Notes under the pieces: generated by a model
Told to the model about the DNA's origin: nothing
The model's input: only the letters and a program-made list of their open reading frames with translations
The model's database searches: none
Shown here: positions 10,936-40,479 of the stretch, in pieces
How positions within the stretch are numbered: position 1 is the stretch's first letter
Layout of the letters: each line of letters opens with the position of its first letter
IMG/VR virus record: IMGVR_UViG_3300045988_020566
Reading direction: 5' to 3' (one strand)
DNA from: a virus
DNA: 42,525 bases
Made by a program: the position numbers and the translations under genes

Positions 10936-11321
10936 GCATCAACGTAAAGAAGTACACCAAAGACCAGATGGCGAAGATGGTGGAGGACGCGCAGGCGGAA
11001 GTGCAGGAATTAAGGCGGGTAAACGCCGCACTGACCGAGCAGATCGACCAGATGAACGGCGAGGCCATCAACAAGGCAAACGAGATCGCGAACCTGAAAG
11101 CGGACGCGGATGCGCTGCGAAACAAGCTCGCTGACACCGAGGCGGCGCTTGGGCGAGCGAATGATGAGTGCGCTTTTAAGCAAGAGGCCCTTAATGTAAT
11201 GCGCAACAGGCGCTACAACGCCGAGCAGCGCGCCGATTACGCAGAATCCCACCCGTGGCGCAATCTGTGGGCATGGGTTAAGAGAAAGATAGGTGGCGAG
11301 AGGAATGAGCACGTTTCCTGA
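10932..11321 (+). CDS. coiled-coil protein
   Basis: 129-aa ORF with heptad-like charged helices (EVQELRRVNAALTEQIDQMNGEAINKANEIANLKADADALRNKL). Confidence 0.65.
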   Translation: MSINVKKYTKDQMAKMVEDAQAEVQELRRVNAALTEQIDQMNGEAINKANEIANLKADADALRNKLADTEAALGRANDECAFKQEALNVMRNRRYNAEQRADYAESHPWRNLWAWVKRKIGGERNEHVS

Positions 11322-11523
11322 CCGCCTACGGAGGTTACGCGAACGCCAGCAGTTAAAGCGCTGCGTGCTGTCCGAGCTGTGCGGGCTGAATCGGAACACC
11401 ATCAAGCGGTATGAGATGGGGACACAGAAACCGTCAATGGACGCGCTGATAAGCATCGCCGACTATTTCGGCGTGTCGATTGATTATTTGCTCGGGCGGT
11501 CGGACTACCCGAAAAGTTTATAA
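11305..11523 (+). CDS. XRE-family HTH regulator (last gene of the early block)
   Basis: LRRLRERQQLKRCVLSELCGLNRNTIKRYEMG...ISIADYFGVSIDYLLGRSD is a typical HTH_3 with a C-terminal YLLG motif. Confidence 0.75.
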   Translation: MSTFPDRLRRLRERQQLKRCVLSELCGLNRNTIKRYEMGTQKPSMDALISIADYFGVSIDYLLGRSDYPKSL

Positions 11524-11537
11524 AAATATTTTGCAAA

Positions 11538-11555
11538 ACTCACTTATAAGTGAGT
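11538..11555. promoter_or_regulatory. 18-bp perfect palindrome ACTCACTTATAAGTGAGT
   Basis: Verified as its own reverse complement. Sits just after the HTH gene stop, at the 5' edge of the non-coding region. Confidence 0.35.
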
Positions 11556-11572
11556 CAGGGTATTGCAATTAT

Positions 11573-12215
11573 GGGAGAATTGAGCCGCAGAGGTGTAAAA
11601 GCCTTTGCGGTTCTCTCATTTATGGCGTTTACCTCCTGCGCCATAGCGGGGACGGCGCTTTTTCATCTTTTCACGCCGCTCCCGCACCATGCCGCACGCG
11701 CGATGCAGCCCACAATCAGGGCCGAGAGGTCGCACCTCTCATGCGGCACAGGGCCCCGCGCACCTCTCAACGATGTGTCCCAGCGGGGACATTTAGGGGC
11801 GAATGTTCCAAGGCTGGCGAGGCGGTCTCCAAAACCGCTTGGGTGGGTTCGATTCCCAACCGTCCCTGCCAACTCTAAACGGAGTCACCAACGGAGTATA
11901 AACAAGTGGGGTAACCGTGGGAACCGGAGATATACGGCATAGGTGCCCCGTAAGGGGAGACCACAGCGAGTGACGGGGACTTTCCCTGAAGCGCTAAAGC
12001 AGGGCAGGACTGCAATGCCGTACCAAAAGAGGAGAGCCGCTGCCTTTGGCAATGGGCAAAGCCCGCCTGAAAGTGCGGCAATAATGGTTCGCGTGAGCAT
12101 GGGGTGAGCGATTAAATCAGGCCAAATCGGTGACAACACCGGGCGAGCCTGAGCTAGTAAGTGTATGCCCTTCGGGGCGGGTAAATTCTGCTATGTAAGG
12201 CCAAGGGGCGGGGGC
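11573..12215 (+). ncRNA. large structured non-coding RNA candidate (ROOL/GOLLD-class or novel); boundaries approximate
   Basis: 727-bp gap before terS with no credible ORF. Stacked hairpins were folded by hand (11573-11617, 11621-11645, 11646-11685, 11690-11748, 11775-11792, 11942-11962 GUAA loop, 12001-12046, 12048-12067, 12117-12152, 12167-12178 UUCG loop). Confidence 0.5.
11795..11871 (+). tRNA. tRNA-Trp(CCA)-like element, non-canonical (possibly a module of the large RNA)
   Basis: 77 nt. A 7-bp acceptor (AGGGGCG/CGTCCCT), G discriminator and encoded CCA. A 5-bp anticodon stem with loop CUCCAAA, and a T-loop GGGTTCGATTCCC. However, the D-arm cannot be folded and the T-stem has a mismatch or an extra C. 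Confidence 0.4.
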
Positions 12216-12250
12216 TGGTAGCAAAAATGTGACAAGAGAGGTGGTGATGA

Positions 12251-12622
12251 GTGCCATTAACAGCAAAGCAAGAGAGATTTGTGCAAGAGTACCTTGTGGA
12301 CTTAAATGCCACTCAGGCCGCCGCGAGAGCCGGTTACAAGAATGCTGAAAAGGGTAGGCAGTTAGTTACGAATAGTAACGTTTCGGCTGCTATCCAGAAG
12401 GCAAAGGCAGAAAGACAGAAACGAACGGAAGTAACGCAGGACTATGTTATAGAAAAACTCAAAGAAATCGCAGACAAGCCTGCGTCTGATTGCACGGAAA
12501 GCGATTTGAAATATGCGAATAAGCTAAAAGCGCTTGAAATGTTGGCGAAGCATACGGGTGTGTTCGACAAGCAAGACAACGCAAGCGCTGATTCCGTTGT
12601 CAAGGTAATTATCGATGTCTGA
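12251..12622 (+). CDS. terS: terminase small subunit
   Basis: LTAKQERFVQEYLVDLNATQAAARAGY is the Terminase_2-type HTH signature. GTG start after gagaggtgg. Overlaps terL. Confidence 0.85.
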   Translation: MPLTAKQERFVQEYLVDLNATQAAARAGYKNAEKGRQLVTNSNVSAAIQKAKAERQKRTEVTQDYVIEKLKEIADKPASDCTESDLKYANKLKALEMLAKHTGVFDKQDNASADSVVKVIIDV

Positions 12623-13853
12623 CATTCGTTTATCCGAGAAAATCGGCCCTGCGTTTTACGATATCGCGCATGATGTTTTTCGTCACGGGCACACGCATTA
12701 CGACTTTAGCGGTGGGCGCGGTTCGCTGAAATCGTCTACAGTATCAATTCTTGTACCGCTTTTACTGGTTTCCAATCCGGGAACGCACGCGCTTGTGCTG
12801 CGCAAGGTGGCAAACACGATCCGCGATAGCGTGTATGCGCAGTATATTTGGGCAATCAGTGAGCTGGGCATGGCGGCGTATTGGGAAGCCAAGGTTTCCC
12901 CGATGGAGCTGATTTATAAGCCAACAGGGCAGAAGATCATGTTCCGGGGCGCTGACGATCCCATGAAGATCAAGTCTATCAAGGTTCCGTTCGGCTATAT
13001 CGCCGTAACGCACTTTGAAGAGAAAGACCAGTTTGCCGGACGCGCGGAAATCCGAAATATTTTGCAGTCGACCATGCGCGGCGGCTCGGTGTTTTGGAAT
13101 TTTGAGAGCTACAACCCGCCGATTTCGCGCGACAACTGGGCGAACAAGGACAGTTTGGAAGAGCGCGCTGACCGGCTGTGCCACAAGTCAACGTACTTGC
13201 AAGCCCCGCCAGAGTGGCTTGGTGAGCAGTTTTTAGCGGAGGCGGAACATCTCAAGGCCACGGACGAGAGAGCGTACCAGCATGAGTATTTGGGCATTCC
13301 TGTGGGCACGGGCGGCAACGTGTTTGACAAGCTGGAACTGCGGGAAATTACCGATGAAGAAGTCAAAAGTTTTGACCGCATCTATCAAGGGGTGGACTTC
13401 GGCTGGTTTCCTGACCCATTCGCTTTTATCCGCCTGCATTATGACAGAGCGAGAGAGACGATATATCTGCTGGACGAGATTTATCAAAATAAGCTATCTA
13501 ACGAGCAGAGCGCGAACATGATAAAGCAATACGGATATAACAATATTCGGACAATCTGCGACAGCGCAGAACCGAAGAGCGTTGCAGATCTCCGCGCGAT
13601 GGGGCTACCTGCGTATGAAGCGGTAAAAGGCCCCGGCTCGGTGGAATACGGCATGAAGTTTTTACAGCGGAGAACAATCGTCATTGACAGGCGACGCACA
13701 CCAAACGCTTACAATGAGTTTGTAGGATACGAATACGAACGAAACAAAGACGGCGACATTATCAGCGGCTACCCTGACGCGAACAACCATTTGATTGACG
13801 CGACGAGGTATGCGTTAGAGCCTGTCAGCCGCAGAATGGGAGTTATTGCATGA
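12615..13853 (+). CDS. terL: terminase large subunit (PBSX/Terminase_3-like)
   Basis: Walker A-like GGRGSLKSST. 412 aa, lying between terS and the portal gene. Confidence 0.9.
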   Translation: MSDIRLSEKIGPAFYDIAHDVFRHGHTHYDFSGGRGSLKSSTVSILVPLLLVSNPGTHALVLRKVANTIRDSVYAQYIWAISELGMAAYWEAKVSPMELIYKPTGQKIMFRGADDPMKIKSIKVPFGYIAVTHFEEKDQFAGRAEIRNILQSTMRGGSVFWNFESYNPPISRDNWANKDSLEERADRLCHKSTYLQAPPEWLGEQFLAEAEHLKATDERAYQHEYLGIPVGTGGNVFDKLELREITDEEVKSFDRIYQGVDFGWFPDPFAFIRLHYDRARETIYLLDEIYQNKLSNEQSANMIKQYGYNNIRTICDSAEPKSVADLRAMGLPAYEAVKGPGSVEYGMKFLQRRTIVIDRRRTPNAYNEFVGYEYERNKDGDIISGYPDANNHLIDATRYALEPVSRRMGVIA

Positions 13854-40354: not shown

Positions 40355-40396
40355 AAAAAGGCCCCGCCGTTTGTTGCAGAGGGCGGCGGGGCCTTT
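40355..40396 (-). terminator. rho-independent terminator (minus strand) ending the HTH/Mrr operon
   Basis: 11-bp stem aggccccgccg/cggcggggcct. A5 at 40355-59 gives a T5 tract on the minus strand. The loop contains TGTTGCAG. Confidence 0.55.
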
Positions 40397-40479
40397 AGTT
40401 GGAGATCTTGATGCTTACACCGTCTTGTGCGACAATCGACATACAGCCCCGTTGCAAAAATACTTGGAGGGACATAATT

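Follow-up and report, generated by a model that had tools for sequence, protein, structure and literature searches.

AbiF has only recently been shown to be an abortive-infection system with an RNA antitoxin (type III-like) and the evolutionary ancestor of Cas13, and the escape of phages from it is barely known, one lactococcal cos-site hairpin having been reported. Phage PhiTE reportedly carries a pseudo-ToxI that acts against ToxIN, and RNA anti-CRISPRs are said to be solitary repeat units. The abiF RNA (RCd22 in C. difficile, AbiFr in a Prevotellaceae system) neutralises the AbiF HEPN toxin by direct binding, in cis and in trans (PMC12373285; PMC12737573), and its antitoxin activity requires the structure of the stem and not its sequence (PMC12373285). 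In the lactococcal phage sk1, a hairpin region at the cos site protects against AbiF, according to PMC13064643 and PMC12184496, which cite Rince 2000 for it and Zilberzwige-Tal 2025 for its confirmation. Orphan abiF matches in phages have been noted only as annotations, in cyanophage S-CREM1 and in the three phage genomes listed by Rfam (PMC9964418). A full-text literature search for "abiF motif" returned the C. difficile study only, and the searchable literature held no description of orphan abiF copies as anti-defence elements, of their fusion to transfer RNAs (tRNAs), or of the cloverleaf RNA described below. Here we describe an orphan abiF-type hairpin in a viral DNA of 42,525 nucleotides (nt), IMG/VR record IMGVR_UViG_3300045988_020566, referred to in its whole length as the window, where the hairpin lies on the + strand in a 727-nt gap (11524-12250) upstream of the small terminase gene terS. 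Orphan, near-perfect copies of this antitoxin occur in at least 100 uncultured gut phage contigs, where they precede the packaging genes and are in most cases joined to a tRNA-shaped unit. From sequence comparison we propose a tRNA-punctuated array whose orphan antitoxin hairpin, freed by RNase P, would keep AbiF toxins inhibited, a reading to which we attach even confidence.

The orphan abiF-type hairpin

Three elements of the gap carry this proposal:

11747-11794, + strand: abiF-type antitoxin hairpin, orphan (sub-threshold match to Rfam RF03085; covariance model R1; stem covariation)
11795-11871, + strand: tRNA-Trp(CCA) with a 7-bp acceptor stem, G73 and an encoded CCA end (ARAGORN)
11934-12025, + strand: 92-nt cloverleaf tRNA-like RNA (acceptor plus NCCA scan, RNAalifold, covariation)

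The hairpin comprises an outer 6-bp stem (CCCCGC/GCGGGG, 11754-59/11783-88), an inner 3-bp stem (CAC/GUG, 11761-63/11775-77), the loop CUCUCAACGAU and a 3' bulge, UCCCA, within conserved flanks ACAG...ACAU. The Rfam abiF model RF03085 aligns with it over its full length at 20.4 bits (E = 0.9), with both stems paired and a 13-nt loop segment exact. Related loci (L numbers) were gathered by scanning viral contigs for exact matches to patterns from the window itself, which gave at least 120 viral loci with the hairpin loop and 37 with the segment 11892-11917. From the loop-matched copies we built our own covariance model, R1, the E-values of which are rough; it finds one copy in the window (72.2 bits, E = 1.5e-20), the next best match being a GC-rich hairpin elsewhere, at 15 bits. 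The latter, at 40356-40397, is a perfect hairpin (GGCCCCGCC...GGCGGGGCC) with A/T runs on both strands, resembling a bidirectional terminator. With this single R1 match, the window shows no tandem antitoxin copies of the ToxI-like kind found in type III arrays. A degenerate second motif in 11690-11748, on the model of the two in RCd22, was considered and rejected because R1 gives one copy only.

The independent evidence for membership of the abiF class comprises two items, stem covariation and adjacency to Abi_2 genes. Across 49 distinct copies, 81% of stem cells are paired, and changes on both sides affect 41 cells where shuffles give 15.5 +/- 3 (none of 500 attained the observed values), the outer stem changing freely with compensation; a one-base shift in some copies explains the residual signal of a control slid by +1. 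This compensation agrees with the published requirement for stem structure (PMC12373285). An exact scan with the 17-nt loop yielded four loci in which an AbiF-homologous open reading frame (ORF) of 283-287 aa begins 51-59 nt downstream, and the one of the four that was scanned (L073) matched Pfam Abi_2 at E = 6e-57 and contained the HEPN motif RNxxxH. When the search was made from the protein side, 10 of 11 Abi_2 viral loci proved to carry an R1 hairpin (47-76 bits) some 20-70 nt upstream of the gene, including loci whose Abi_2 proteins are 41-52% identical and whose loops differ by substitution or insertion. By its sequence, its structure and the Abi_2 association of its class, the hairpin is assigned to the abiF RNA class.

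Searches by tblastn with two AbiF proteins (42% identical to each other) found no AbiF homologue in the window below E = 0.5, and none in ~115 other loop-matched loci. The hairpin of the window is thus an orphan, and the next gene after its array is terS, not an adjacent abiF toxin gene. In other phages the abiF-type hairpin forms a small-RNA gene by itself, with TATAAT ~7 nt ahead of ACAG and a separate terminator.

Stand-alone copies of this kind, without an abiF gene, were observed in unrelated phage contigs (L059, L060, L080, L041, L095, L089/L092). Some of them carry a terminator of their own or, before ACAG, a promoter-like -10; the genes that follow are terS-like, HNH or integrase genes, so that a position adjacent to packaging genes recurs. 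The contig of L059 also contains, at 1065-1126, an Rfam GP20-b RNA motif at 52 bits, above threshold.

The hairpin junction and its tRNA-shaped units

The tRNA-Trp begins at the base directly after the hairpin tail ACAUUU, which ends at 11794, and thus 6 nt past the stem. Its acceptor stem is perfect, its anticodon loop has 7 nt, its anticodon and T arms are good, and it bears A1-U72 and G73, which are identity elements of bacterial tRNA-Trp. The D arm is weak, with a D stem of 2-3 pairs and a 4-nt connector, and the Rfam tRNA model gave no gathering-score match at this position, the best match of the clan being tRNA-Sec at 36.8 bits against a threshold of 47.

The position of this junction was surveyed in 117 loop-matched loci with enough downstream sequence. 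Counted from the loop start, a tRNA or a unit consisting of an acceptor stem and NCCA begins at +35 in 65 of them: 26 have a tRNA called by ARAGORN (Thr-cgt, Gln-ttg, Trp-cca, Ser, Gly, Phe and one with a 4-nt anticodon), and 39 have a unit not called by ARAGORN, with a 6-7-bp acceptor-type stem and an NCCA end. The tRNA-Trp of the window starts at +35 too, a position that it shares with 25 other loci. A U-tract takes the place of the unit in 13 loci, among them the AbiF-linked copies and several of the stand-alone, promoter-bearing small-RNA genes. The base at -1 of the +35 unit is always C or U, and the identity of the cargo differs by locus.

Two types of cargo in relatives deserve description. 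In L148, L043, L045, L087, L096 and others, the +35 "tRNAs" share acceptor, D and T arms (GCAGACGUAGCUCAG...) and have aberrant anticodon arms; some possess an 8-nt loop, CU-UCGU-GA or CU-UCGA-GA, with a 4-nt anticodon "tcga" in ARAGORN, and others a loop containing the Shine-Dalgarno-like CCAGGAGGU. Such tRNAs could be quadruplet decoders or decoys. A second tRNA-shaped cargo (GCGGCGUGCAGAAGCAGAAGCGAAAGCAAUGGCUAUAGGCAACAUUGCGGACGUGUGGCGGCUCAAUACCGUCUCGCCGCUCCA), with a 6-bp acceptor stem and an NCCA end, occupies +35 in L040, L051, L055, L058, L078 and others, its arms being unrelated to the RNA at 11934-12025.

That RNA is the second tRNA-shaped unit of the window: a scan for a 7-bp acceptor stem followed by N and CCA found two units in the region, this one and tRNA-Trp, where 0.23 were expected in shuffles. 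Forty-two distinct variants were found and 26 aligned, and their RNAalifold consensus is the same as the minimum-free-energy (MFE) structure of the single sequence, a four-way junction composed of a 7-bp acceptor, an arm with a GUAA loop, a long middle arm (with an AGUGA/GAAG internal loop, a variable tip and a 3-nt apical loop) and a 4-bp arm with a 7-nt loop, followed by A and CCA. Base-pairing is retained in 97.6% of cells, and nine pairs are changed on both sides, which none of 500 shuffles reaches; slid controls drop to 32-48% paired. Examples of changed pairs occur in the acceptor (GCGGAAU/AUUCCGC) and at the tips (GGGGACUUUCCC, GCCGGCGUUCCGGC, GCCAAAUGCUGGC), and the strand of the RNA, as judged from its G-U pairs, is the + strand. 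An anticodon loop is missing, and "tRNA-like" refers to its four-way topology, acceptor stem and NCCA end only; it is not called by ARAGORN and has no whole-element Rfam match at E <= 10. From these comparisons we regard it as an undescribed tRNA-like small RNA.

The gap as an array of small RNA modules

The gap is bounded by the stop of a gene matching HTH_3 (11523) and the GTG start of terS (12251), and the upstream gene, terS and the large terminase gene terL are all on the + strand, as are the RNA modules. An earlier note, made from the letters of this DNA, had described the gap as an unusually long and highly structured non-coding region upstream of terS, and this is borne out: the gap is non-coding, its structured RNA is encoded on the + strand, and the packaging and late genes begin after it. 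According to a rough gene model based on codon usage, no longer stretch of the window lacks ORFs with the codon usage of genes. Three ORFs of 54-132 aa within or overlapping it (11480-11878, 11550-11942, 11943-12107) might be taken for genes, which we find barely credible: their G+C content is flat over codon positions (0.53-0.60), whereas in real genes of the window that of the second position (GC2) dips to 0.32-0.45; their codon log-odds are -0.12 to -0.15 against +0.09 to +0.69 for all tested genes; they have no Shine-Dalgarno sequence; they enclose the tRNA (inside both 11480-11878 and 11550-11942) and the covarying cloverleaf RNA; and they are disrupted in relatives by the replacement of modules. 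The + strand of the gap folds at an MFE of -300.8 kcal/mol against -266.7 +/- 7.6 in dinucleotide shuffles, a control absent from the earlier note (z = -4.47; minus strand, z = -3.88). The gap is real, non-coding and structured beyond chance.

Comparison with relatives resolves the gap into parts of different history. In the closest database relative, MT835513, the segment 11302-11792 is shared at 92% identity and 12162-12226 at 95%, and the part between them consists of a different tRNA and ~330 nt of unrelated sequence; in MT836871, the window's segment 11846-12026 is placed behind a tRNA-Gln. Relatives in the isolate-phage database number only two, both uncultured. When twelve sub-segments were compared with the gathered loci by BLAST, each had its own distribution. 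Close relatives have the 5' part and the last ~65 nt in common, with the middle replaced by other tRNAs or modules, and the distance from hairpin to terS in full arrays ranges from 348 to 820 nt, with varying cargo between. Judged by these alignments, the gap is a mosaic array of co-oriented small RNA modules, in which the 5' part and the 3' end are constant and the middle is exchangeable. The independent exchange of its parts among related gut phage contigs shows that it is not a single RNA. The remaining modules and the flanking genes are as follows:

11293-11523, + strand: XRE/Cro-type helix-turn-helix gene, 76 aa (Pfam HTH_3, E = 1.2e-11); context, outside the RNA array
11538-11555, no strand: perfect 18-bp palindrome ACTCACTTATAAGTGAGT, candidate operator (inverted repeat of 9+9 nt, 100% complementary)
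11582-11613, + strand: hairpin M1, 13-bp stem then UCUCAUUUAU, a terminator-like site (z = -5.9)
11621-11645, + strand: hairpin M2, loop with ACCUCCU (z = -4.3; 8 pairs kept and loop nearly invariant in 24 variants)
11646-11685, + strand: hairpin M3, 16-nt U-rich loop (z = -3.4; outer 6 pairs kept)
11690-11748, + strand: element M4, 7-bp closing helix around three small hairpins (z = -3.1; pairs kept in 24 variants)
11872-11933, + strand: spacer M7, with two copies of AACGGAGT and, at its end before the next unit, GAGAUAU (z = +0.6, unstructured)
12026-12166, + strand: variable structured spacer M9, starting with AAAGAGGAGAGCCGC, hairpins at 12048-67 and 12117-52 (z = -2.3)
12167-12227, + strand: terminal element M10, GCCC-UUCG-GGGC hairpin then GGGUAAAUUCUGCUAUGUAAGGCCAAGGGGCGGGGGCUGGUAGCAAAAA (75 copies, nearly invariant outside the tetraloop)
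12234-12622, + strand: Shine-Dalgarno sequence AAGAGAGGUGGUG and terS, GTG at 12251 (Pfam Terminase_2, E = 2.3e-23)
12615-13853, + strand: terL (Pfam Terminase_3, E = 5.1e-35)

In shuffles made module by module, the folding excess of the 5' hairpins (z = -5.9 for 11573-11620, -4.3 for 11621-11645, -3.4 for 11646-11685 and -3.1 for 11690-11748) is accompanied in the 3' part by that of 11934-12025 (z = -3.1) and 12026-12166 (z = -2.3), and is absent in 11872-11933 (z = +0.6) and 12167-12250 (z = +1.0).

The palindrome at 11538-11555 lies 15 nt past the stop of the 76-aa HTH_3 gene, which also stands 5' of the array in many relatives, and it is kept wherever relatives carry that gene; it is likely an operator, possibly controlling transcription of the RNA array. 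Two differing upstream contexts turn homologous at TTATG(G/A)GA(G/T)AAT, with a conserved block from ~11585, and because homology between them begins there, the sequence TGgGAGAAT at 11572-11580, after the palindrome, suggests an extended -10. All 12 pairs of M1 persist through 24 variants, in some of which C-G gives way to U-G, a change that preserves pairing on the + strand alone; the hairpin would be either an early-operon terminator or the 5' stem-loop of the array transcript. The inner stem of M3 is CGGCG/CGCCG here and CGGTG/CACCG in relatives, and the third hairpin of M4 covaries between subfamilies (GAGAGGT/ACCTCTC, GGGAGGT/ACCTCCC, GGCGGGT/ACCCGCC). Overall, variation in M1-M4 consists mostly of wobble changes valid only on the + strand, with a few compensatory changes. 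The M2 loop at 11628-11638 is UUUACCUCCUG, and its ACCUCCU is the anti-Shine-Dalgarno sequence of 16S ribosomal RNA; it could pair with a Shine-Dalgarno-like AGGAG at 12029-12035 or with the Shine-Dalgarno-like cargo-tRNA loops of relatives.

On the 3' side, M7 is 98-100% identical in 38 loci and can follow another tRNA, such as the tRNA-Gln of L002. M9 is complete in only 12-19 loci, short versions of ~35 nt retaining only a GCCGC...GCGGC stem. In each full array examined, the blocks shared with relatives end with M10, after which come either a ribosome-binding site and gene or an inserted module and then terS. Structure in 12167-12227 was considered and set aside, since the segment has too little variation and no thermodynamic signal (z = +1.0); M10 may be a 5'-untranslated-region (5'-UTR) element, a late promoter or a packaging signal. 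In L083, L122, L128, L148 and L153, an insertion of ~300 nt, absent from the window, separates the terminal element from terS, with extreme polypurine/polypyrimidine runs (gaagaaaagagaagaaaatctcccctttcttccccctctcttcttttcccc...) after a block containing TTGACA.

Most helices folded by hand in the earlier note reappear in this analysis: those at 11573-11617, 11621-45, 11646-85, 11690-748, 11942-62 (GUAA loop), 12048-67, 12117-52 and 12167-78 (UUCG loop) stand, and two do not. The helix at 12001-12046 runs across the 3' end of the cloverleaf RNA, and that at 11775-11792 conflicts with the abiF-type hairpin, whose outer stem is supported by covariation; this helix is a product of the conserved CCCA bulge meeting the G-rich 3' stem, and is absent in many variants. 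The repeats of the note are present, CGCACCTCTCA at 11731 and 11759 and AACGGAGT at 11878 and 11890, and its "tRNA-like module" is the called tRNA-Trp(CCA) at 11795-11871. Its suggestion that GAGAGG has two mutually exclusive CCUCUC partners, which would make a riboswitch-like toggle, fails in relatives, which have GGGAGGT/ACCTCCC or GGCGGGT/ACCCGCC at this place, compensatory changes that end complementarity to the loop of the abiF-type hairpin.

The note's broader interpretation, that the gap encodes one ornate RNA of ~700 nt with a tRNA-like domain, of the ROOL or GOLLD kind or of a new class, we now consider very improbable, even though the non-coding, + strand structured character of the region, its tRNA and its place at the head of the late genes all stand. 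ROOL and GOLLD are known from prophages, frequently near tRNAs, and prophage context, tRNA proximity and high predicted structure are common to them and the array; the folding of the whole gap (z = -4.47) is likewise what a single RNA would show. The array differs in having no covariance-model match and in being modular instead of one conserved fold of 500-800 nt. Across the 42.5-kb window every Rfam family stays below its gathering score, and a permissive scan of 11400-12400 (E <= 10) found no ROOL, GOLLD, HEARO, raiA, intron or riboswitch, its notable entries being only the tRNA-clan match at 11796-11866 and the sub-threshold abiF match at 11754-11789; group I and group II introns and riboswitches were rejected on these two scans, and a transfer-messenger RNA (tmRNA) because ARAGORN found none, its single call being the tRNA-Trp. 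Modules that are differently distributed and independently swapped, a middle part replaced in a 92%-identical relative, supported helices that are all local, and two internal units with their own acceptor stems and CCA ends, implying cleavage into pieces, further argue against a single RNA. For annotation, this means that "large structured gaps" near terS can be small-RNA arrays and not giants of the ROOL or GOLLD type.

Proposed function, alternatives and known systems

In the mechanism we propose, the array would be transcribed on the + strand as one precursor, for which the candidate promoter is at ~11572-11580. RNase P would cut at the 5' ends of both tRNA-shaped units, 11795 and 11934, as their 7-bp acceptor stems, NCCA ends and the pyrimidine at -1 lead us to infer, and the cut at 11795 would free a leader RNA of ~210 nt ending in the abiF-type hairpin. 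This hairpin would bind AbiF toxin dimers of the host or of resident prophages and keep AbiF inhibited while the labile antitoxin RNA of the cell declines during infection or induction, and the phage would thereby escape abortive infection. The tRNA and tRNA-like RNA would be exchangeable cargo punctuating the transcript, which may, more speculatively, also replace or decoy tRNAs attacked by such nucleases. A more extended version, in which gut Clostridia phages open their late operon with a hypervariable tRNA-punctuated array of anti-defence RNA decoys, with the AbiF hairpin freed by RNase P and the cargo decoying HEPN nucleases, is offered tentatively and is in our view rather unlikely; so, jointly with it, is the inclusion among the decoys of the 92-nt cloverleaf RNA and of the relatives' aberrant and 8-nt-loop tRNAs. 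We read the phage as one of a gut Clostridia type; the nearest annotated terL genes are those of Blautia phage Montmirail (57%) and Clostridium perfringens phages (~50%).

Several observations weigh against this proposal. The hairpin scores below the Rfam abiF gathering threshold (20.4 versus 37 bits), the Rfam consensus has a longer 3' bulge than its UCCCA, and the hairpin is a single motif where RCd22 needs two. The copies aligned were all retrieved by exact match to the window's loop, so that the invariance of the loop among them is given by construction and carries no weight. A consensus scan found no sigma-70 promoter on the + strand. Common descent, together with recombination at conserved borders, could account for the constant +35 junction in place of selection for RNase P processing. 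The roles of M1-M4, the cloverleaf RNA and the terminal element are left unexplained by the proposal, and host assignment failed, a scan of a genome collection giving one contig, L160, that is probably a mis-binned phage contig. This contig (SFFY01000016.1, 42.7 kb, labelled "MAG: Bacteroidales bacterium") was the sole match in that collection to 11725-11749, and its label is unfit as a host. Regarding the first point, the Abi_2-adjacent copy of L105 itself reaches only 27.8 bits with the Rfam model and that of L073 is unlisted at E <= 10; because an AbiF-linked copy scores so low, the Rfam threshold excludes the whole subclass and is an unfair test of membership.

An alternative is an ordinary phage tRNA with a structured leader, the hairpin being a relic of a lost abiF locus or a generic leader, stabiliser or processing signal of the tRNA precursor, unconnected with AbiF proteins, and the rest a regulatory 5'-UTR of the late operon. 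A tRNA is present, as in many phages, with the hairpin directly 5' of a tRNA-shaped unit, in a single copy, at a sub-threshold Rfam score and with no AbiF partner identified. We nevertheless think this explanation unlikely, while giving it some weight: a conserved 48-nt element is not needed by a tRNA leader, the hairpin is also found free of tRNAs in other phages as a small-RNA gene with promoter and terminator, and its loop is identical to that of AbiF-linked copies across AT-rich and GC-rich contexts while the stem compensates, a fixed loop on a freely compensating stem being what points to a trans-acting binding partner and not to a relic. That DNA sites account for part of the region, with 12167-12227 as a pac/cos site or late promoter and the palindrome 11538-11555 as an operator, is in our estimation improbable. 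The terminal segment has two GGGGYGGG boxes ~33 nt apart, is near-invariant over 75 copies while its neighbours vary, lacks a thermodynamic structure signal (z = +1.0) and adjoins the first late gene on its 5' side; the perfect palindrome comes after an HTH gene; and the AbiF-protective hairpin of sk1 is placed at a cos site in the papers cited above. The same segment is also found before first genes other than terS, and this speaks against a pac site specific to terS; the sigma-70 consensus is lacking, and such sites would cover ~80 of the 727 nt and are compatible with the proposed anti-AbiF array.

Set beside the described abiF RNAs, the hairpin has the same outer stem, 3-bp inner stem, conserved 11-nt loop and single-stranded 3' bulge, and belongs to a sequence class found directly upstream of Abi_2 genes. 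It differs in having no abiF gene, no promoter directly before the hairpin and no U-tract terminator, a tRNA following 6 nt after the stem instead, and in possessing one motif against the two of RCd22. The sk1 element, as described in the citing papers, provides a precedent for both the proposed function and location, being a non-coding phage element that adjoins packaging genes and counteracts AbiF; in those papers its hairpin is reported as unlike the AbiF noncoding RNA, whereas the element here is a close copy of it. Phage tRNA clusters are known to include stable tRNA-like RNAs such as the T4 species 1 and 2 RNAs, and the array resembles them in having tRNA genes among small structured RNAs with tRNA-like ends, presumably processed by RNase P; here, in contrast, cargo is exchanged between close relatives in the manner of cassettes, exposing a hypervariable cassette site for tRNAs and tRNA mimics together with a covariation-supported 92-nt cloverleaf RNA. 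With the pseudo-ToxI and RNA anti-CRISPRs mentioned at the outset, it would share the reported principle that a phage carries an orphan copy of an RNA bound by a defence protein, and would differ from them in that the protein is apparently the HEPN toxin AbiF and that the copy is a single hairpin, not tandem repeats, fused to tRNA-shaped units. If the proposal is true, the hairpin would constitute a natural RNA anti-defence element analogous to these two systems.

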